A stretch of 64,000 nucleotides of DNA from a virus (taxonomy: Duplodnaviria > Heunggongvirae > Uroviricota > Caudoviricetes): the IMG/VR virus record IMGVR_UViG_3300023203_000736; one strand, 5' to 3'. Below, one piece after another: positions 2,078 to 19,673 of the stretch. Below the pieces are notes generated by a model. It did not search any database. It saw only the letters and a program-made list of their open reading frames with translations, and was not told the DNA's origin. The position numbers and the translations under genes were made by a program. Position 1 is the stretch's first letter, and every line of letters starts with the position of its first letter.

Positions 2078-2550
2078 GTCTCTGTCTGGGAAAGGGGAAT
2101 GGAAAACAGAACGCCGTCCTCCCACTCGCCGTAGAACTTGAACCAGTTCTTGAGCAGCGGGACTTCGGCCCGGAAGCCGAGCTTGATGAGCCATTGGCTC
2201 AGATCATCAGGGTCGCCCGGCCGCAGTCGGCTCTCCGGGACGAGCATCAGCAGTTCGATTGCCCCGATTTCGCGGGCGAAAAGTACGCAGTTGCCCAGCA
2301 GCCGGCGGGCAATACCCTGGTTCCGGTACGGTGCTTTCACCGCAATCCTGACGATCTCCACACCGCGATTTCGGTTGCTGGTGAAAATCACCATTCCAAC
2401 CGGAGTGCCATTCCACGTAGCAACGCAGGCCAAGCAATCCTTGGCGACTTGCCGCCAGTCCTCGGGCAGCCATGCGTAGTCGAAGCACTTATTGTCGATG
2501 TCCAGCAGGTAATGAGCATCCCTCTCGGTAGTAGCGCGGATGTTCAGCAT
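2074..2550 (-). CDS. GNAT-family N-acetyltransferase.
   Basis: Contains the RNQGIARRLL acetyl-CoA-binding motif (Q/RxxGxG/A) in a GNAT-like ~158-aa fold. Confidence 0.7.
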   Translation of the reverse strand: MLNIRATTERDAHYLLDIDNKCFDYAWLPEDWRQVAKDCLACVATWNGTPVGMVIFTSNRNRGVEIVRIAVKAPYRNQGIARRLLGNCVLFAREIGAIELLMLVPESRLRPGDPDDLSQWLIKLGFRAEVPLLKNWFKFYGEWEDGVLFSIPLSQTET

Positions 2551-4065: not shown

Positions 4066-4370
4066 GCCGGTTGACCGTCCCTCCCGTTGATGCACGGCTT
4101 ATTGAGGTCACGCATCGGAACGCCGTGCTGCTCGAAGCAGGCGACTCCGAGGGTCACGACTTTTCGCAGACTCTCCAAGGTCTTCTCGTCGCCGTCCTCG
4201 CAGGTCGCCGTGCGGAACGCCTGGTCAAGGTAGTGCCTCATGTAGACCAGGAACTCGCCGACAGTGCGATTGTGCTCCTGGAAAGTGCCGTTCCATTGGC
4301 GTTGCCCCCAGCGGCGGGCCTGGTAGGCACGCTCGCTGGCGATTGCGTCGAAAATCATGTCGATGGTCAT
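4062..4370 (-). CDS. Small acidic protein, possibly a MazG-like all-alpha NTP pyrophosphohydrolase.
   Basis: ERAYQARRWG and TVGEFLVYM resemble the EExxE / EVGEL helices of MazG-type NTP-PPases. This is a weak call. ATGA overlaps on both sides. Confidence 0.3.
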   Translation of the reverse strand: MTIDMIFDAIASERAYQARRWGQRQWNGTFQEHNRTVGEFLVYMRHYLDQAFRTATCEDGDEKTLESLRKVVTLGVACFEQHGVPMRDLNKPCINGRDGQPA

Positions 4371-5440
4371 TCGTTGTCCTGTGCGCCTTTCCGATCGAGA
4401 TAGTCCGCGCTCACGCTTTTCAAGATCAGCCGGCCGCCGGTCGGAGCGTAGAAGTGCTCTACCTGCGGAGTGATGACGCAGCCTTCTCGATCCTTAAAGC
4501 TGCTCTTGATCTTGTCTGGAGTAGCCAACGTCGTGGGACCGTAGGTGAACTGATTCACGAGGTCTTTGCTGAACGGTCCCTCATAAAGCACGGGAACCAA
4601 TTCGACGCCGAACTGGGCGCAGGCGGCTTTCAGAGCCTCCCAGTCGAGATACCTGCCGTTGACGCTGATGTCGAAAACACGATAGCCATCCCTGTCCTTG
4701 ACTCCGTAGTCCAAGTCCTGGACGCCCGACCCGTAGATTTCCCCGAAAACGATCACTGAGTTCTTCTCATCACAGAGATGCGTGAGGAGATTCAAGACGC
4801 ATTCGTCTTCGAGCGGCTTCCAGTAGATGCACGCCTTGCCTTCTTCCGGCTTCTTCCGTCTGGTCCGATGGCTCCCGGCCATGAACTCGAATTCGCCGTT
4901 CTTGAGGATCAGGCCGACCCGGCTATTCGTGCCGTGAATCTTTTCCGTGATCCGAACGAGCGTTCCTTCCGCGAAGGCGTCAGGAAACCGCCAGATGTTC
5001 TCGATCTCCGTATACTTGTGAAACTGGCTATCCTCTGGCGCGAGATCGCCGGGAAAATACTTGGCCGGCGGTTCGTACTTCTTGGCGGCCCACATCACCG
5101 ACACGTCGCTTCCCAGGGGATGGGCGCGCAAGAGGTCGGGAGCAGGGATGACGAAACCGAAGCTCGGTTCGCCTCGCAGCCGGCAGGCCGCCACCCGACA
5201 CTGGCACTTGATGCCGTCGAGTTCGGCGTGTTTGAGGTACTTCTGGATGCCGAGCGTCTGGCTGACATCCTGTGGGATCAGAATTCCGGGAGGGAAGAAG
5301 ACTACCCGCTGACCTTGTTGGAACTCGCCCTTGCCGACGATCGTCGTGAGGCCCTTGATGACCGCGATTTCCAACTTGCTCGCGTTCGGATGGGGCCTCA
5401 CTTCATCAATGGTGGTGAGTTCAACGAAGAGGTTGGACAT
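4367..5440 (-). CDS. ATP-dependent RNA ligase, Rnl5-like (DraRnl/NgrRnl type), with an N-terminal OB-like domain.
   Basis: Nucleotidyltransferase motif I is TEKIHGTN (KxHGxN). The N-terminal region runs MSNLFVELTTIDEV...KLEIAVIKG. No C-terminal Rnl2 domain is present. Start is taken at MSNLF (5440). Confidence 0.6.
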   Translation of the reverse strand: MSNLFVELTTIDEVRPHPNASKLEIAVIKGLTTIVGKGEFQQGQRVVFFPPGILIPQDVSQTLGIQKYLKHAELDGIKCQCRVAACRLRGEPSFGFVIPAPDLLRAHPLGSDVSVMWAAKKYEPPAKYFPGDLAPEDSQFHKYTEIENIWRFPDAFAEGTLVRITEKIHGTNSRVGLILKNGEFEFMAGSHRTRRKKPEEGKACIYWKPLEDECVLNLLTHLCDEKNSVIVFGEIYGSGVQDLDYGVKDRDGYRVFDISVNGRYLDWEALKAACAQFGVELVPVLYEGPFSKDLVNQFTYGPTTLATPDKIKSSFKDREGCVITPQVEHFYAPTGGRLILKSVSADYLDRKGAQDNE

Positions 5441-5711
5441 AGGCGCGTACCTTGAGCGCTGGAGGATGGTTGGAGGAAAAGCTAGCGCAACGCCAGGCGC
5501 GGTTGGCGAGTCCTCTTCGACAGAGACCGCTTGCGCCAGCAAATTGGACTGACTGTGGCGGGATCGCCGAGTAGTCTAAGTCAACCTGGGAGTCTCCCAA
5601 GTATCAGGGCGCACACTGCCTTTTCGAGCAACGTCTTTTCCGGCAGCTAGGGACTGCTCTCCAGCGTTGCCGCTGGCATATTGCTCAGCCCATCAACTCC
5701 CAGGTCGGAAG

Positions 5712-13186: not shown

Positions 13187-15757
13187 TCACATCATTTCCG
13201 GCGCGCGGATTTTGACCTTTTCCGCTCCGTCCTTCTTCTCAGCCCAGTTGGCCATCTCCTCGAACCAGGACATGCCGATCAGCGGCACCTTGTCACGGTA
13301 GGACTCGACGACACGGCGAACCGTTGCCGTCACCTGCTTCACGACGCTCGGGTGCGTGCTGCACATGAGTTCGTCGTGGACGTTCATCGGGCCGACGAGA
13401 AGCTCATGGATTCCCGCCGGTTGGATGTCCCAGATTGCCCGCTGCACGGCCTTCGTGATCTGGCCGCCAGGCGATTGAATCTCATGGTTGGCCGCCGCTC
13501 GCATGTTGGCGGCTTGAATCTGGAAGGCGGCTCCATACAAGGCGCTGGCGACGGCACCGCCGGCGGTCTGAATCCTGTCACTGCGATGAACCTTGACTGG
13601 GTGGTTCCGCCAGCCTTTGGGCGGCTTCCGAGCAAGCTCAAACAGCGCCCGGCAAATCTTGTTCTCCAAAGTGAAGTAGCGGCGGAATCCCAGGAAGCTC
13701 TCGACAAACTCGGCCGGTTCGTCCCACACAACCTGCGAGCCGATGCCTCCGGGTTGCTTCATCGAGCAGAACTTCTTTATCGTCCGCTCGCGGGCCTTGC
13801 CGATGCCCTTGTACCGATTGGCCCATTCCTCGTGAGCCTTCCTGGCTTGCGCCTCGCTGATGCTCAGGTTGCGTTGCAGCGTCTTTTCGTTGCCACCGTA
13901 AATCTCAGCGAAGACGCCGCTCTTGCCCTTCTTGTACTTCTCCTTGTCCGCGACCACTTCCTCATAGCTGCAATCGAAGAGAACCATGCCGAAGAGGGCG
14001 TGTATCTTTTTGGTTCCAATGCCGGTCCCATCGCACTCCTCGCACTCATGTGTGCCAGTGCCGTGGCACTTTCGGCACTTCTTCGAGTGGCACTTGCCTG
14101 TGCCGTTACACTCGATGCAAGGTGCCTTCGTTATGAGGGTCTTACGAATCTCAGGGTCGTTGTAGACCGCATCCGCAATCGTGACCTCGAAGCTATCAAA
14201 GTCGCCGCCGCAGAGGTTGTAACCCGGCCATGCCAGGGGAAACATGCAGCGGACTTCATCCGAACCCTTGATGCCTTGGGCATTCAGACCATCGCCGCCG
14301 CTCATGCGGTTGCTGAGCGTGCCCACGATGTTGAAGCTCGCGTGGAACTTGCCAGCGAAGATCAGCTTGGTGAAAAGCTCGACCTCCTTGACCGCGTGCT
14401 TGACCGTCAATAGTTCCTTGGCTCGCACGGCGGCAGGATGTTCCTGACCGGCGGTAAGGTGGCCGAGTCCGTTACATCGCTTGCAGATGCCGTCTTTCAG
14501 TCGGCCAGTTCCGCCGCACTTCAGGCAGTGCTCATGGACATGGATTCCATCCCAAGCCTCCACGCCCGCCGTACCGATCTCGTCTTCGTCATCGTCATCT
14601 TCATCCTCGATGACCTTGTATTTGGTTGTGGCTTCCAGGTTCTGCTTCTTCGTCGATTCCTGAATTTTGAGGCTCTCAATGTCGTCCATGACCTCCATCA
14701 GGTAGGCCCGGACGGCGGCCGGCTTGTTGATGTTCACGGGCGAGGCGGCGACCACCGCCTTCGCCTTCTCCAGCAAGCCCTCCATGCCCTCCACGTTGAT
14801 TGTGAAGCCACGCCAGCGAATCACCGGGACCATGCAGGCGAGAATCGAATCGTCGTCGCCCGGCGTCGGATAGCCAAAGTGCTTATCGAGCGCCCGCGTG
14901 TAAACGATGTCGTCCGTCGCGTAGTCCCGAGCGTCCGGGCGGTTAGCCCAGTGCTCGATGAAATGATGAATGACTGCGGGCCAGGCTCGGCCGGCGAGCT
15001 TCTGCTTGCCGTCCTTTTCCGACCATACTTCCCAGTTCTTTTCAGGGCTGCTCACCGCCAGGGCGGTTGGAGCATAGCCGACTTCGTAGGGCCGCCACGC
15101 TGGATCAGGTTCGACATCCTTGTAGTGGTACTTCGGGGTCAATCCCATCGCGTGTTCAGCAAGGAACTTCAAGCCGCCCGCCGGATTGAATCTCAGGCAT
15201 ACGTCCTTGAAGTCCTCATCCACCAATCCGTCGCGGTTGCGACGATCGAACACCTGCCACTTCGGGGCGTCCTTGTCCGCACTCTTGGCGAAGTAGATGT
15301 CGTCAAGCTCGATGCGTTGCTCCAACCCCTGCGCCAACGCATACGCCAGCGCGGTGGGCACCTTCCGTATCCTGATGTCCTCACGAGCCATCAGGCTTTG
15401 GTACGGTCCCTTACGGGAGTGCAACAGCAGGTCAAGGGCGCTGGCCGGCTTCACGCAGGGGCCGTCCTGCCCTTTTGGCTCCAGCAGGGCAATCTCCTCG
15501 ATATGCTCGCAAGGAATCCAACTGGGATCAGCCAGGCGAAACGTCGTGTAGGTCTTGACGATATGGAACCAGTCGAAAGCCAGGTTGAAGCCGACAACCG
15601 TGTGTTCACACAGCCACTCGATCAGCGCAAGGGTCTCGCGGATCGGCCGTCGCCAGACTTCGTACAATGCAATAGGGCCTTCTCCCTCCGCATACTGGAG
15701 GAGCACCATCTGCGAGTGTAGTCCGCAGGTTTCTGTATCAAGGTAGACTTTGCTCAT
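13187..15757 (-). CDS. Family A DNA polymerase with 3'-5' exonuclease and two inserted DnaJ-type zinc-finger arrays.
   Basis: Exo I is YLDTETCG. Pol motif A is CGGDFDSFEV, motif B is KSGVFAEIYGGN and motif C is NVHDELM. The inserts are CLKCGGTG/CKRCNGLG (near 14461-14527) and CIECNGTG/CRKCHGTG/CEECDGTG (near 14023-14119). Confidence 0.85.
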   Translation of the reverse strand: MSKVYLDTETCGLHSQMVLLQYAEGEGPIALYEVWRRPIRETLALIEWLCEHTVVGFNLAFDWFHIVKTYTTFRLADPSWIPCEHIEEIALLEPKGQDGPCVKPASALDLLLHSRKGPYQSLMAREDIRIRKVPTALAYALAQGLEQRIELDDIYFAKSADKDAPKWQVFDRRNRDGLVDEDFKDVCLRFNPAGGLKFLAEHAMGLTPKYHYKDVEPDPAWRPYEVGYAPTALAVSSPEKNWEVWSEKDGKQKLAGRAWPAVIHHFIEHWANRPDARDYATDDIVYTRALDKHFGYPTPGDDDSILACMVPVIRWRGFTINVEGMEGLLEKAKAVVAASPVNINKPAAVRAYLMEVMDDIESLKIQESTKKQNLEATTKYKVIEDEDDDDEDEIGTAGVEAWDGIHVHEHCLKCGGTGRLKDGICKRCNGLGHLTAGQEHPAAVRAKELLTVKHAVKEVELFTKLIFAGKFHASFNIVGTLSNRMSGGDGLNAQGIKGSDEVRCMFPLAWPGYNLCGGDFDSFEVTIADAVYNDPEIRKTLITKAPCIECNGTGKCHSKKCRKCHGTGTHECEECDGTGIGTKKIHALFGMVLFDCSYEEVVADKEKYKKGKSGVFAEIYGGNEKTLQRNLSISEAQARKAHEEWANRYKGIGKARERTIKKFCSMKQPGGIGSQVVWDEPAEFVESFLGFRRYFTLENKICRALFELARKPPKGWRNHPVKVHRSDRIQTAGGAVASALYGAAFQIQAANMRAAANHEIQSPGGQITKAVQRAIWDIQPAGIHELLVGPMNVHDELMCSTHPSVVKQVTATVRRVVESYRDKVPLIGMSWFEEMANWAEKKDGAEKVKIRAPEMM

Positions 15758-16149
15758 GGCACAGATGGTTGCGGCTTGAAGACCTTGTAGCCGTCCTCGT
15801 CGTAAGACAGGTCTGCGTAGTAGCGTTTGTCGAGCGACTTCCGTTCGGCGTCCCTCTCCAGAGAGAAACGTTCATACCGCTCTTCCGCATCCCATGCCTT
15901 GAGCGCTTTCTTTAGCGTCGGAAAGACCCCAAGATGTGCGCCCTTGTAGGTGGCCGTGATACGGTCTCCCACCACCTCGACGCCTTGGCCGAAGGGCAGA
16001 AGCCTTCGGGCCTTGGGCGGCGGGATGGGGCGCTTCTGTGCGATCGCTTCTTTGACGGTTTCCGCTTCGTCCTCTTCCAGACGGTAGATCACTTTGCCGT
16101 TTGGGAGTCTGACAGCGAATTGAAAGTCGTTCTCGTATTGGTCGTACAT
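15754..16149 (-). CDS. Hypothetical protein.
   Basis: 131-aa ORF whose stop overlaps the polymerase start. Confidence 0.45.
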   Translation of the reverse strand: MYDQYENDFQFAVRLPNGKVIYRLEEDEAETVKEAIAQKRPIPPPKARRLLPFGQGVEVVGDRITATYKGAHLGVFPTLKKALKAWDAEERYERFSLERDAERKSLDKRYYADLSYDEDGYKVFKPQPSVP

Positions 16150-16300
16150 GGTGTAAACTCAGAGGGCCTCGGCATTCCACACGGCTTCCCATCCGGCTAT
16201 GACGGGAATACCGTTACTGCCAGCCAGCAGTCCTAGTCGCCAGCCGTGTGGTCTATAGGTTCAGCGCTGCTGCGCGCCGAGGCCCTCTGATGATTCAGGG

Positions 16301-17935
16301 CTAGTTGCGAATGAAGTCCGCCATCAAGGCAGGGCAGGATGCGTCGAATCCGACGACATCCAACATGCCGGCGTCGTTCGGGTCGGCGATCGTAAACCCG
16401 GTGGCCGTCATGCCAACGACAATCAGCTTGGCATTGATGCCCGTGGCCTGACGGTACTGCATGAGGGCCTGGCTGGGATGGATGTGCCCAGCCCAGGTCT
16501 CATTGTCCGTGTAGACCACGAAAGCATCGACTTCGAGCCGATTCTTGAGGGCATAGATCATCGGGAGAGCGCAGTCGGTGCCGCCCATCGGAATCTGCTC
16601 GATCGCCTGGATCACGCCGTTGAGACCCTTCCGTTTCGAGATGTCCACGGGCACCAGTTCGTGCGAGAAGCCGACCACGTGAGTCTGCGGCTCGACCTTC
16701 TGAGTCACCATCGACATGCAGGCTGAAGCCTTTCGGGCGTCCAGGTGCGTGCCGGCTAGGTGCTCCCAACCCATCGACCCGGACACGTCCAGGGCCAGCA
16801 AGTGCCGCTTGCCGGTCGGCTCGACGGTATCGAAGGCCGCGTAGAAGGCGTCCTCCAAGGCGTCGGTGATCTGGGGCACCGGCTGCCACGTCAGGCTGCC
16901 TTTGACGCCGTGGCCGCTACCATAGGTGTCGGCCGCGATCAGGATAGACAGCGGATGCACGCGAGCGCCTTTGAGCCGCTCCTTGTTCGTGAGCGTGTCG
17001 CACACCAGCTTCGTCGCCAACGACAGCGGTTTGAGCAGGCCAACGCTGGTCATCTTGCCGAGGTTCCGAATCATGGCCGTGGGCGGCAGATTCGGTAGCA
17101 AGGCGTCCCAAACCTTCGGGTTGCCCAGCAGCGTGTTGGGCACGTGTTCCAGGGTCACGCCATAATTCTGAATCAACTGGATGGCTGCCTTCTCGTCGGC
17201 AGTACCGAGCTTGTTGATCTCGTTAAAGCCAGCAATGAGGGCCAGCGCCTGACCGCCGTAGGCCACAGCGAACCCGGCGCTCCGACCGTTGGTGTATGCC
17301 TCTGGCAGGGTTCCGTGCGTGAGCCAACGATAGATCGCGTTCCGTTGCGAATCAGTTGTCTTCGGATGGCTCAGCCGCAGCACATCGCGGTGCGTGTAGC
17401 CGGCGCGGTTACGGTACTTCGTAACCTGATAGGCCAGCTTATCCGCAGGCTTGGCGTTGTACCAAGCCGCAACCGCCTCACGCAGGCCACGGCCCCAGCC
17501 GCGCAGTTCCTTGCAGTTGGCGACGAACTGGAACAGGTGGGTCGCCGTGCGGCAGACGCGAGGCATCGCGGCCAAGGCTCGATGCCGGAGGTAGCCCTGG
17601 TCCTGCTGGCTCGCCAGCAAAGCCAGGGCGAAGATTGCAGGATCGTTCTTTGGAGCACGTCCCAACTCGCTGATCGCGGCGATCGTCTCGACGGCGCGAA
17701 TGGCGTCGGTCTTCCCGCATTCAATCACCACGTTGGCATTGTCGGCCGTCAACTGCTGCTCGCCCACATAGTAGGTGCCGCCCTCGCTGCCAAGGATCAG
17801 GAACCGCTCCAGACGGCTCCAGCAATCGAGAGTGTGGCTGTAGCCGCCGGCGCTGTTCTCCGCCTGGCGCTTGCCGGGAATCGGCCGGCTCTGCGGAGTA
17901 ACTCGGGACGACACATGCTTGGCAAGGGTCTGCAT
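16301..17935 (-). CDS. rsr: Ro60 ortholog Rsr (TROVE domain plus C-terminal vWA/MIDAS).
   Basis: [22 protein letters not shown] and PAIFALALL are colinear with human Ro60 [22 protein letters not shown] and PMLFALAIC. C-terminal [11 protein letters not shown] is a DxSxS MIDAS motif. Confidence 0.9.
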   Translation of the reverse strand: [544 protein letters not shown]

Positions 17936-17959
17936 CGAACGATCTCCAGGGTAGAAGGA

Positions 17960-18019
17960 TTGGGCAAACAGTTGCCGTGGGCGTCATCATTGCCAGATAA
18001 CCCACGCGCTTCGGCCCAA
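17960..18019 (-). ncRNA. Y-RNA-like stem-loop 4 (Ro-binding-type helix with bulged C), 25 nt upstream of the rsr ATG.
   Basis: Minus strand reads UUGGGC-C-GAAG...CGUGGG-loop(UUAUCUGGCAAUGAUGACG)-CCCACG...GUUU-GCCCAA. The lower helix TTGGGC/GCCCAA has a bulged C followed by GAA/UUU. Confidence 0.45.
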
Positions 18020-18026
18020 TGTTTTG

Positions 18027-18093
18027 CCGGGCAAAGAGCGCCGATCGGTGTTTGTCAACTAAAGGTGAGATAACCGATTCAGCTTCGGCCCGG
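18027..18093 (-). ncRNA. Y-RNA-like stem-loop 3.
   Basis: CCGGGC-C-GAAG-CUGA-AUCGG-loop(UUAUCUCACCUUUAGUUGACAAACA)-CCGAU-CGGCGCU-CUUU-GCCCGG. The helix has 11 bp with a single bulged C. GGGCCGAAG..GUUAUCUCA matches vertebrate Y RNA GGUCCGAAGG..GUUAUCUCA. Confidence 0.5.
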
Positions 18094-18095
18094 AG

Positions 18096-18226
18096 GCACG
18101 CCGGTAGGACTTGAACCTACGACCACAGGTTCCCATTGTGATAACGCTCCCAATTCGGCCCATCAGGCAAGGGACTTGGAAGCGGTTTTCTGATACCTGT
18201 GCTCTGACCAACTGAGCTACGGCGTA
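18096..18226 (-). ncRNA. tRNA-like / Y-RNA chimera A (YrlA-like).
   Basis: Acceptor TACGCCG/CGGCGTG, D-arm GCTC-AGTTGGTCA-GAGC and T-arm GTAGG-TTCAAGT-CCTAC are present. The anticodon position is occupied by a ~65-nt insert that contains UGGGCCGAAUUGGGAGCGUUAUC. Confidence 0.55.
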
Positions 18227-18235
18227 CATATAAGC

Positions 18236-18357
18236 GGACACCGGCGGGAGTCGAACCCGCAACACCCCGTTATCAGCGGATAACGCTTTGCCTTCGGCCC
18301 AAGGGGCAAGGGATGGAAAGCGCGTCTTAGGTGCTTTGCCGATTAAGCTACGGCGTC
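18236..18357 (-). ncRNA. tRNA-like / Y-RNA chimera B (YrlA-like).
   Basis: Acceptor GACGCCG/CGGTGTC, D-arm GCTT-AATCGGCA-AAGC and T-arm GCGGG-TTCGACT-CCCGC are present. The insert CUUUCCAUCCCUUGCCCCUUGGGCCGAAGGCAAAGCGUUAUC has 17 of 23 nt identical to the hY1 motif UGGUCCGAAGGUAGUGAGUUAUC. Confidence 0.55.
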
Positions 18358-18370
18358 CACAATCGTCCCT

Positions 18371-18408
18371 CCTTTGGATGACGTAGCTCAATTCGCTTTC
18401 CGTTCAAC
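18371..18408 (-). promoter_or_regulatory. Conserved 38-nt element R1. It starts at the ParB-like stop codon and lies immediately 5' of Y-RNA chimera B.
   Basis: Minus strand: TGAACGGAAAGCGAATTGAGCTACGTCATCCAAAGGAGG. It is nearly identical to R2 at 24421-24458. Confidence 0.4.
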
Positions 18409-19204
18409 TTTTGTCCCGTTTTGCCGATTCGATGTCGTGATCGAGTTCTTCGTCGTTGATATATCCCGCACACCACGCTCCAAACCGCGTAACCAGTCCG
18501 CCCAGACCGGCTTCGAGCAATTGCCCGATGCGGGCATTGATCTCTTCCTTGCCGCGCCGATAGCGAAATGTCCTCCGATACCTGGGATTGACGTTGATCT
18601 TACGCTTGTTCTTGCCGCGAGCCGCGATGATCTCGTTCGCGGCTTGAATCTGCTCATCAGGCGGCAGCTTCACCAAGGCGTCAACGTCGAGCAGCGTCAG
18701 CATACGAGCGGCGACCTTCTCGCGGAGTTCCTCGGGAAGCTCCATGATCCGAAGCCGCTGATGTACCCAACGTGTATCCCGATTCATTTCCTGGGCAATC
18801 GCCCGAAGACTTGCACCCTTCGGAAACCGCCTGGCGATTGCCTGTGCCTGTTCAAGAGGATTGAGGTCTTCGCGTTCCAGGTTCTCCGTGAGGTTCAGAA
18901 TCTCGGCCGCCCGATCGGTGAGGCCCCGCCGGATGTTCGCCGGAATGCCGGTCCATCTCAGAAACGTCTTGACCGCCGCCAGACGACGGAAACCCGCAAC
19001 CAAGCGATACGGCTCCACAAAGCCGGCTTGGCTGTCCTCGCGCTGTTGAAGAATCACCGGAATTTCAAGTCCCGCCTGCGCGATATTGTCCGCTAGCCCC
19101 TTGACGGACTGAAATGTAAACGCAGTGCGGCAGTTGAAGTCGGGATCAACCCAGATGTCGGTGAGCGGAACGTCGTACACGTCATAGCGACTAAGGCGTT
19201 CCAT
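18404..19204 (-). CDS. ParB-like nuclease-domain protein.
   Basis: LVAGFRRLAAV is the GxRR ParB-box. Start is taken at MERLSRYDVY (19204), because the longer ORF runs over tRNA-Asn. Confidence 0.65.
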   Translation of the reverse strand: MERLSRYDVYDVPLTDIWVDPDFNCRTAFTFQSVKGLADNIAQAGLEIPVILQQREDSQAGFVEPYRLVAGFRRLAAVKTFLRWTGIPANIRRGLTDRAAEILNLTENLEREDLNPLEQAQAIARRFPKGASLRAIAQEMNRDTRWVHQRLRIMELPEELREKVAARMLTLLDVDALVKLPPDEQIQAANEIIAARGKNKRKINVNPRYRRTFRYRRGKEEINARIGQLLEAGLGGLVTRFGAWCAGYINDEELDHDIESAKRDKS

Positions 19205-19252
19205 AGATGCCTCGGTAGACGAAAAACGGCCCGACCGAAGCCGGGCCAAAAG

Positions 19253-19325
19253 CTGCATCGCCTGGAGTCGAACCAGGAACCACAGCATTAACAGTGCCGC
19301 GCTCTACCATTTGAGCTACGATGCA
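19253..19325 (-). tRNA. tRNA-Asn (anticodon GTT).
   Basis: TGCATCG-TA-GCTC-AAATGGTA-GAGC-G-CGGCA-CTGTTAA-TGCTG-TGGTT-CCTGG-TTCGACT-CCAGG-CGATGCA-G. All arms are canonical. Confidence 0.85.
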
Positions 19326-19331
19326 ATGGGG

Positions 19332-19673
19332 CTAACTCAGGGTGTCGGTAACGAGCGAATCAAGCGGCACTCCCGTCGAGACCACGCATTCCCTGCGCGG
19401 AAAGGGGATGATGTATTCGCGGTCCTCCGGTTCCTCACCAGGACCAGGGGCCGTCAGGGCTTTGACGCCCTCTTTGCCGACCGGCTCATACGTCTCGCGG
19501 AAGACGTCGTCCCTGCAAGGGTAGAGTTCGTCCTTGACGCCCTGGACAATCCAATCGCCAGGCTCAGCGATCAAGTCATGGCCGTGGAGCGTCTGGCTTC
19601 CTGGGATCACGACCCGTTGCATGACGCGCTCGGCATTGACAACCACTGGTTTCTTGCGGAAGGCAGCAGGCAT
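19332..19673 (-). CDS. Hypothetical protein.
   Basis: Start MPAAFRKKPVVVNAERV. It ends 7 nt from tRNA-Asn. Confidence 0.4.
   Translation of the reverse strand: MPAAFRKKPVVVNAERVMQRVVIPGSQTLHGHDLIAEPGDWIVQGVKDELYPCRDDVFRETYEPVGKEGVKALTAPGPGEEPEDREYIIPFPRRECVVSTGVPLDSLVTDTLS

Follow-up and report, generated by a model that had tools for sequence, protein, structure and literature searches.

The locus described here raises the question of which RNAs a tailed phage encodes beside its copy of the Ro60 gene. Ro60 and its Y RNAs form a conserved RNA quality-control system, and Ro60 is a human autoantigen. In the window, a 64,000-nucleotide (nt) stretch of DNA from a member of the Caudoviricetes (IMG/VR record IMGVR_UViG_3300023203_000736), a gene for a Ro60/Rsr orthologue, rsr, is preceded by a gap that holds four elements with a Ro-binding motif. 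Two of these, elements 3 and 4, are small canonical Y RNAs by structure. The other two, units 1 and 2, combine tRNA and Y RNA parts, and alignment and covariance modelling indicate that they are YrlA modules in the native tRNA chain order, that is, a circular permutation of known YrlA. It is this unpermuted single-chain tRNA-Y architecture and its breadth that are new. Phage Ro60 with Y RNAs was already known, as had been pointed out in the first-pass annotation of this DNA, and 380 phage records encode a Ro60 homologue, at most 48% identical to the Rsr described here. No description of an unpermuted YrlA was found in the literature searched, from which two key reviews and the supplements of Chen et al. 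2014 were outside scope.

Architecture of the tRNA-like units

The gap between a ParB-like gene and rsr spans 468 nt (17936-18403) and holds the four RNA elements, all on the rsr strand. The pattern GGGCCGAA-N(3-14)-GTTATC has four copies in the window, every one of them on the minus strand and inside the gap (18300-18279, 18161-18140, 18091-18069 and 18017-17996), and 100 dinucleotide shuffles yield no match. Four elements with a Ro signature had been reported 5' of rsr in the first-pass annotation; their number, strand and position hold, but the second motif reads GGGCCGAAU, and the GAAG of the original wording does not apply to it. A fifth exact GGGCCGAAG (2163-2171, minus strand) lies in coding sequence without GUUAUC and is therefore attributed to chance. 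A 110-amino-acid open reading frame (ORF; 18059-18391, minus strand) and plus-strand ORFs over the array were treated as spurious, because substitutions between the window and loci L001 and L002 are compensatory in helices and not codon-like. L-numbered loci are loci outside the window, among them IMG/VR contigs and, as L095-L174, contigs of metagenome-assembled genomes (MAGs) around rsr that were fetched with the Rsr protein.

Both units have a 7-bp acceptor stem, a D arm (UAGCUnA..GG..AGC), a T arm (GGUUCgAnUCC) and, between the D and T arms, an insert of about 60-70 nt. Within the insert the order is CGCU(U)...CUUGCC(C/U), a 3-nt loop, and GGGCCGAA...AGCG-UUAUC. Since the 3' strand of the Y stem (CUUGCCC/U) precedes GGGCCGAA, the Ro-binding helix is a capped hairpin. 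The YrlA signatures are present in both units as GGGCCGAAG or GGGCCGAAU followed by GUUAUC, in agreement with the consensus motifs GNCGAAN0-1G and YUAY.

Unit 1 (18237-18357, minus strand, 121 nt) scores 117.4 bits with the covariance model R1, which was derived from A1, an alignment by MAFFT of 10 units taken from six sources (the window and five IMG/VR loci). Its acceptor stem (GACGCCG/CGGUGUC) is followed by the D arm, a CUAAGACG linker, Y helix 2 (CGCUUU/AAAGCG), the capped Ro helix, UUAUC, a V-arm hairpin and the T arm (GCGGG-UUCGACU-CCCGC). The Ro hairpin, UUGCCC-CUU-GGGC[C]GA, was placed at 18294-18309 (minus strand) from the sequence and the alignments. The V-arm hairpin, UCCG-CUGAUAA-CGGG (18266-18280, minus strand), has a 4-bp stem and a 7-nt loop of the anticodon-loop-like form C-U-NNN-A-A, and its stem covaries in relatives of unit 1 (UCAC/GUGA, UCGA/UCGA, UCCA/UGGA). 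The minimum free energy fold of unit 1 alone yields the acceptor, D and T arms.

Unit 2 (18097-18226, minus strand, 130 nt; 120.3 bits with R1) consists of an acceptor stem (UACGCCG/CGGCGUG), to which G18227:C18096 may add an eighth pair, a D arm, an anticodon-like stem (CAGGU/ACCUG), a 9-bp Y helix 2 (CGCUUCCAA/UUGGGAGCG), the capped Ro helix, UUAUC and the T arm. In its Ro hairpin, UUGCCU-GAU-GGGC[C]GA (18155-18170, minus strand), the 3' strand comes first, the cap is 3 nt long and C18157 is bulged; RNAalifold pairs the corresponding columns of A1 (59-62 with 68-71). The fold of unit 2 has a z of -2.9 against shuffles. Against the Rfam tRNA model, unit 2 scores 47.5 bits, with an insert of 61 nt; this match, together with the R1 scores of 117-120 bits for both units, bears out the earlier description of two tRNA-like chimeras.

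The two units represent two types. Type 1 chimeras, such as unit 1, are without an anticodon-like stem and have a short V hairpin (the 'V arm' of Chen et al.) after UUAUC, whereas in type 2 chimeras, such as unit 2, an anticodon-like stem of 5-6 bp encloses the Y arm and the V hairpin is absent. In A2, an alignment of the 54 best R1 units (at least 61.9 bits, 118-146 nt), the V-arm loop is often C-U-NNN-A-A (CUGUUAA, CUGAUAA, CUGCUAA, CUCGUAA, CUUCCAA), with examples in the window (18266-18280, minus strand), L104 (4846-4969), L033 (2189-2311) and L126 (6803-6921), and exactly one 5-nt 'variable loop' (AGGUC) separates the hairpin from the T arm. The hairpin may be what is left of an anticodon arm; the Y arm would then have been inserted at position 26/27.

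An alternative explanation is that units 1 and 2 are tRNA genes, functional or in decay, that happen to carry an insertion or intron and are not dedicated Ro60 partners. Unit 2 and many relatives exceed the Rfam tRNA gathering score with a long insert, unit 1 has a hairpin with the anticodon-like loop CUGAUAA, and the rsr loci of MAGs lie within large tRNA gene arrays. However, the insert is non-random, with the Ro-binding consensus, YUAY and a covarying helix 2 in 54 units, and its removal from unit 2 restores no 7-nt anticodon loop. The 5-bp anticodon stem and 7-nt loop that a bona fide tRNA has between D arm and variable loop were not found, and ARAGORN calls neither unit 1 nor unit 2 as a tRNA. 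Once permuted, the units align over their full length to YrlA, and the matches of a pattern scan that was blind to rsr adjoin rsr. The introns known from bacterial tRNAs belong to group I and measure at least about 200 nt, which also counts against an explanation that is, on balance, very improbable.

Chain order of the units

Wang et al. 2018 (bioRxiv 10.1101/312249) describe YrlA as a tRNA that is circularly permuted and lacks a free CCA end. The phage units resemble it (RF02553; S. Typhimurium YrlA, 6CU1) in the GNCGAAN0-1G motif (here GGGCCGAAG), the YUAY motif (UUAUC), the V hairpin, the T arm (GGUUCGAnUCC), the acceptor stem, the D arm (UAGCUCA..GG..AGAGC) and the position on the same strand beside rsr. 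The connectivity, however, is different. YrlA ends in its Ro-binding stem and has its acceptor closed by a loop, whereas in the phage units the 7-bp acceptor is open and it is the Ro-binding helix that a 3-nt loop closes. When units 1 and 2 are permuted in silico, by cutting at the Ro cap and joining the acceptor ends, they align full-length to canonical YrlAs with scores of 80-118, against 55-62 (standard deviation 5-7.5) for shuffles; in native order they give background scores.

Both alignments favour the native structure. In A1, 94.1% of cells are paired, compared with 35-47% when the partners are slid, and double changes are seen at 15 pairs; the acceptor is 100% paired, with double changes at 6 of its 7 pairs. 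RNAalifold, applied independently to A1, returns the acceptor, D stem, Y helix 2, Ro hairpin and T arm. The corresponding values for A2 are 93.7% and 33-49%, with the acceptor at 99.5% (7/7 pairs covarying), Y helix 2 at 92.6% (6/6 covarying), the conserved Ro hairpin at 91.6% and the T and D stems at 100%, but as A2 was fitted to R1 these percentages, unlike the compensatory changes, are inflated toward that structure. The loop that caps the Ro hairpin measures 3-10 nt in 52 of the 54 units. The GGGCC-GAAG helices, whose failure to form had been named beforehand as what would count against the annotation, are present as GGGCC/GCCC helices and covary.

The permuted register offers an alternative, in which the gap would contain a single canonical YrlA (18300-18163) running from the Ro 5' strand of unit 1 through the T arm, a cross-unit acceptor hairpin and the D arm to the Ro 3' strand of unit 2, the outer half-units being decayed duplicates. 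This order of parts is the one published for YrlA. Such an RNA would be consistent with the Rfam YrlA match, which extends from the unit 1 T arm to the unit 2 D arm (18289-18176, 42.7 bits, E=5e-8), with a cross-unit acceptor capable of 6/7 pairs around a 10-nt loop, and with the existence of tandem canonical YrlAs in Gordonia phage Cashline. The match nevertheless falls short of the gathering score of 69 and is of exactly the false-positive type described by Chen et al. (PMC4201824), in which the T arm of one tRNA and the D arm of the next in a dimeric tRNA are taken for YrlA. It is this known tandem-tRNA artefact, and the difference in connectivity accounts for the Rfam model matching only across two units and below threshold. 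Folded alone, each of the two units adopts acceptor, D and T arms together with a long arm, and the permuted construct (18300-18163) folds no better than its shuffles (z=+0.67). GGGGUG and CACAGG cannot pair across the units and are marked as non-pairs by Rfam, and the anticodon-like stems (CACCU/GGGUG in unit 1, CAGGU/ACCUG in unit 2) pair only within their own unit.

Tandem and solo units from other loci bear on the same choice. The intra-unit acceptor has 7/7 pairs in all seven tandems, while the cross-unit acceptor of the permuted register has 5-6/7 in six of them, of which only 2-3 are Watson-Crick in L002 and L091, which are more distant; the L154 tandem reaches 7/7 across units, but has identical acceptor strands in both units and is uninformative. 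Acceptor compensation takes place within the unit, as in L002 unit 2 (GCACGUUG/CAACGUGC). There are solo units that are unable to adopt the permuted register (L081, L003 unit 1), and the halves that would be orphans are as well conserved as the middle. The topology expected of a circularly permuted YrlA, with ends in the Ro-binding stem and a looped acceptor, is not the one found: the acceptor is open and covaries within the unit, and 3 nt cap the Ro helix. The native order explains all four elements, whereas the permuted register, which is regarded as extremely unlikely, leaves two conserved 'half units' over.

Several points weigh against the native order or against the role proposed below for the units. 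Besides the Rfam YrlA match and the fitting of A2 to R1, the R1 matches were chosen partly by acceptor pairing, unit 1 alone is overall no more stable than its shuffles (z=-0.92), and type-1 units have a weak anticodon-like stem or none (76% of its cells are paired in A2). Only 5 of the 54 units are followed by an encoded CCA, and neither a phage CCA-adding enzyme nor a polynucleotide kinase or PNPase turned up when 39 distinct window ORFs were scanned against Pfam or PHROGs. The Rfam Y_RNA model (RF00019) has no match in the array at E<=10, and the covariance search proposed with the first-pass annotation was thus unsuccessful for both of its models, RF02553 being below threshold and in the wrong register. 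Finally, we know of no case in which Ro60 has been shown to bind a capped Ro helix.

Small Y RNAs and relatives at other rsr loci

Elements 3 and 4 complete the array and are supported by their folds and by a family of 30 sequences. Element 3 (18027-18093, minus strand, 67 nt) begins 3 nt after unit 2; its 5' CCGGGC-C-GAAG is paired with the 3' CUUUGCCCGG, and helix two (AUCGGU/ACCGAU) is followed by GUUAUC. In element 4 (17959-18020, minus strand, 62 nt), the 5' AUUGGGC-C-GA, with its bulged C, is paired with the 3' UUGCCCAAU, and helix two (CGUGGG/CCCACG) is again followed by GUUAUC. The termini of both can be summarised as (CC)GGGC-[C]-GA(AG) with (CU)UU-GCCC(GG). The fold of element 3 has a z of -3.4, with 0 of 200 shuffles equally stable, and that of element 4 a z of -2.4. 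These two had initially been described as bulged-C stem-loops; the bulged C is real, but the elements are complete small Y RNAs with paired 5' and 3' ends.

RNAalifold returns the terminal helix and the second helix from the 30 homologues, and 91.7% of cells are paired when the two pairs past the bulge are included, compared with 35-50% for slid partners; helix 1 is 98.8% paired. The pair beside the bulged C, which was left unconstrained when the homologues were selected, is intact in all 30 sequences (C-G in 22, U-A in 8). The same switch from C-G to U-A is seen in chimeras from L003, L043, L074 and L071 (GGGU-C-GA/UU-ACCC). With metazoan Y RNAs, nematode stem-bulge RNAs (sbRNAs, RF01656) and Deinococcus radiodurans Yrn1/Yrn2, elements 3 and 4 share both strands of the bulged-C helix (GGGC-C-GA/UUGCCC here, GGUC-C-GA/UUGACC in vertebrates) and the GUUAUC that follows. 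They differ in being phage-encoded, in an array, 62-67 nt long and under the RF01656 threshold; element 4 scores 19.9 bits against a gathering score of 38, which relatives in L074, L022 and L025 exceed.

The 54 chimera units found with R1 lie beside rsr in viral contigs and, mainly, in MAGs of Myxococcota. Among IMG/VR loci, those with R1 units include L033, L020, L046, L043, L074, L057, L071, L048, L049, L013, L031 and L015. About 30 of the 80 MAG loci, on which R1 has 442 matches, contain chimera units; most belong to Myxococcota (Kofleriaceae, Polyangiaceae, Haliangiales), and further carriers are from Abditibacteriaceae, Armatimonadetes and Chloroflexota. When DNA patterns were scanned for without regard to rsr, true matches were found only immediately upstream of rsr genes; 9 of the 14 stretches from the IMG/VR scan were chance matches in coding DNA.

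Canonical permuted YrlAs are found, by a simple heuristic, in about 40 other loci, mostly Verrucomicrobiota MAGs and several viral contigs. The Rfam YrlA gathering score was dropped as a means of telling canonical from native forms, as it detects none in 40 loci although canonical ones are visible by eye; at 69 bits, RF02553 misses those seen in viral contigs L008, L010, L175 and L176. Canonical YrlAs that are unannotated in the records also lie upstream of the Ro-like genes of Gordonia phage Cashline (two in tandem) and Microbacterium phage FuzzBuster (one). In cultured actinophages, R1 gives matches of 37-38 bits that are the converse artefact and extend across canonical YrlAs that are in tandem or flanked, and the native count was for this reason limited to R1 matches of about 60 bits or more. 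Unpermuted chimeras and permuted YrlAs are about equally common in the sample; both connectivities are common and appear to be lineage-specific. An identical 41-nt block, GUUAUCACCUGUUAAGUGAGAGGUCGCGGGUUCGAGUCCCG, is common to L091 unit 1 and the FuzzBuster YrlA.

Some variation was observed among the chimeras and their surroundings. In 33 of the 54 units, unit 2 of the window among them, base -1 is complementary to base +73 (G:C in 19, U:A in 14), which gives an 8-bp acceptor like that of tRNA-His. A third chimera type, of 96-97 nt (L003 2760-2856, L091 958-1053), has Y helix 2 (CCGU/ACGG) in place of the anticodon stem and one T-stem mismatch. In L005 (2751-2836), an rsr gene of 68% identity has upstream of it an 86-nt tRNA-like gene that retains the anticodon-like stem as well as AGCGUUAUC in a 20-nt loop; its Ro-binding hairpin is gone, as if a type-2 chimera had undergone a deletion. 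In Myxococcota and Verrucomicrobiota MAGs, rsr lies within dense same-strand tRNA arrays mixed with Y RNAs and tRNA-Y chimeras (for example L104 1986-7546, L164 303-2614 and L132 4834-6605). A group I intron (89 bits) is located about 2 kb downstream of rsr in related viral contigs (L021 3625-3842, L023 6586-6803), and a wcaG RNA motif upstream of rsr in L018 (1298-1413).

The Ro60 protein and the proposed phage module

The ORF that follows the array (16301-17935, minus strand, 544 amino acids) is a full-length Ro60/Rsr orthologue, and the assignment made in the first-pass annotation is correct to the nucleotide. The two domains whose presence was to be checked are both matched in Pfam, TROVE (PF05731, HEAT-repeat ring) at 1e-46 and the C-terminal vWA_Ro60 (PF25045, residues 377-542) at 2.5e-68. 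The peptides quoted earlier as colinear with human Ro60 all occur in the protein, as does the MIDAS motif DxSxS, in the form DVSGSM (DVSGS). Human Ro60 (9nen) is matched end to end over residues 15-538 (E=1.3e-130), and Xenopus Ro (1yvp, E=4e-125) and D. radiodurans Rsr (2nvo, E=2.4e-120) are colinear over the full length; the PHROG assignment is phrog_850, RNA-binding protein (1.9e-83). The closest cellular Rsr proteins are only 47-54% identical. By score, the phage Rsr is nearer to human Ro60 (439.6 bits) than to D. radiodurans Rsr (405.7 bits), and both strands of the metazoan-type helix are likewise kept by the phage small Y RNAs.

Taken together, rsr and its compact, co-oriented array of four partner RNA genes very probably constitute a phage Ro60 ribonucleoprotein module. 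The bulged helix GGGC-[C]-GA/UU-GCCC is the element recognised by Ro60. From the features identified here (Rsr, the RNA architectures with their covariation, and the association with rsr) we infer a course of expression, processing, binding and effector recruitment. The array may be co-transcribed with rsr, by analogy with Mycobacterium smegmatis and D. radiodurans (PMC4201824). Units 1 and 2 would be excised by tRNA-processing enzymes, RNase P at the 5' end and RNase Z or exonucleases at the 3' end, and a CCA-adding enzyme would then supply their 3' ends; excision of unit 2 would also trim the 5' end of element 3, which is 3 nt away. Each of the four RNAs would be bound by Rsr at its bulged helix. 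The tRNA-like domain may tether Rsr to a host effector, on the model of the Rsr-Y RNA-PNPase machine (PMC4201824, PMC12135203), while the small Y RNAs may gate the Rsr cavity or bring other partners. During infection, host 3'-5' RNA decay or RNA quality control might be redirected, perhaps with the phage RNA ligase.

Known systems provide partial parallels. In M. smegmatis, a single precursor upstream of rsr gives rise to both YrlA and YrlB, and RNase P cuts a YrlA whose acceptor stem has 7 bp and which acquires CCA (PMC4201824). That RNA is treated as a tRNA and has free tRNA-like 5' and CCA 3' ends, but it is a two-piece RNA (82 + 65 nt) with four ends, whereas the phage units are predicted to stay single chains because their Ro helix is capped. 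Other phage Ro60 systems (Bxz1/ET08-type mycobacteriophage, Cashline, FuzzBuster, phiLo) likewise have Y-like RNAs directly upstream of Ro60. In Cashline and FuzzBuster, however, these are canonical YrlAs and not the unpermuted form, and Yrl1 and Yrl2 of Thermus phage phiLo, whose Ro60 and Y-like RNAs bind host PNPase, are stem-bulge-stem Y RNAs without a tRNA chimera (PMC12135203).

The arrangement of the array also allows the four elements to be read as acting in cis, as sites within the rsr mRNA 5' leader to which Rsr binds for autoregulation, and not as released RNAs. Element 4 ends 23 nt before the rsr ATG and 11 nt before the ribosome-binding site GGAG (17944-17947, minus strand, read from the sequence 8 nt 5' of the ATG), and there is no promoter or terminator between array and rsr; in a scan of 15600-19500, no sigma-70 promoter or intrinsic terminator was found inside the array, counts being at shuffle level. 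Against this, the same RNA types are found downstream of rsr in L020, L046, L104 and L132, and an ORF lies between in L003. The complete tRNA-like acceptor stems predict excision, and in both D. radiodurans and M. smegmatis polycistronic precursors are the source from which the Y RNAs are cut (PMC4201824). A purely cis-acting array is very improbable, though cis and released-RNA roles are compatible with each other. The TGGAGATCGT block at the ribosome-binding site is kept in L001 and L002. A 46-nt leader (18358-18403, minus strand) between the ParB-like stop codon (18404-18406) and unit 1 is not conserved in L001, and pairing of this leader with the 5' ends of the units, which appears in a fold of the whole region, was rejected as it is not kept in L001.

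The tailed-phage origin proposed earlier agrees with a gpA-type terminase large subunit and a P22-type coat protein in the window, which also encodes PolA, DNA ligase, DNA methylase, helicase and exonuclease. On the minus strand, the replication module is ordered helicase, exonuclease, tRNA-Asn, ParB-like gene, 468-nt gap, rsr, 131-aa ORF and PolA. The listed ATG (19288) of the ParB-like ORF (18404-19288, minus strand) overlaps the tRNA-Asn (19253-19325) and a terminator-like hairpin (19248-19227), and the real start is probably an internal Met, such as residue 29. The family A DNA polymerase (13187-15757, minus strand) contains insertions rich in CxxC, similar to the CXXCXGXG zinc finger of DnaJ (Pfam 1.1e-05, which does not reach the curated cut-off). 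An RNA ligase with an N-terminal OB domain (4367-5542, minus strand) is located about 11 kb downstream of rsr. It contains PF21189 (PHA02142; OB, residues 42-133) followed by the PF09414 RNA_ligase nucleotidyltransferase (residues 196-376; Pfam 1.9e-20), and belongs to phrog_968. Its best solved relative is Naegleria NgrRnl (5cot, E=7e-11), the Rnl5 exemplar, and the domain order and this match uphold the Rnl5-type ligase of the first-pass annotation; a functional tie between this distant gene and rsr is speculative.

A wider reading is that unpermuted tRNA-Y chimeras are a widespread and overlooked class of Ro60 partner, that they exist as CCA-tailed single chains, that they engage tRNA factors and that the tandem is a duplication intermediate. 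As a joint proposal it is tentative and somewhat more apt to fail than to hold. If it is true, the chimeras dominate in Myxococcota, a group in which few YrlAs were found by Chen et al. 2014, and extend to a clade of phages that are uncultured. A free 7-8 bp acceptor would direct maturation by RNase P and RNase Z and addition of CCA, as single chains, opening partners beyond the reach of the closed-acceptor YrlA, such as aminoacyl-tRNA synthetases, EF-Tu and tRNA-targeting defence nucleases, for which the RNAs could be decoys. The tandem of units 1 and 2 would then be a duplication intermediate that interconverts permuted and unpermuted forms, and tandem duplication followed by truncation would offer a route to circularly permuted RNA. 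Few YrlAs were reported in delta-proteobacteria by Chen et al. 2014 (PMC4201824), and matches overlapping tandem tRNAs were discarded, which fits with the native form having been missed. The architecture may thus explain the under-detection of YrlA in delta-proteobacteria by a permuted covariance model, and the mis-calling of such genes as tRNAs with inserts.

The combination of a free, processable acceptor with a capped Ro helix would also provide an experimental handle on whether Ro60 needs free helix ends. It opens the further questions of whether the tRNA-like domain is CCA-tailed or charged, and which tRNA-binding factor is the effector. For phage biology, it would place a four-RNA Ro60 module within the replication gene cluster of an uncultured phage lineage.

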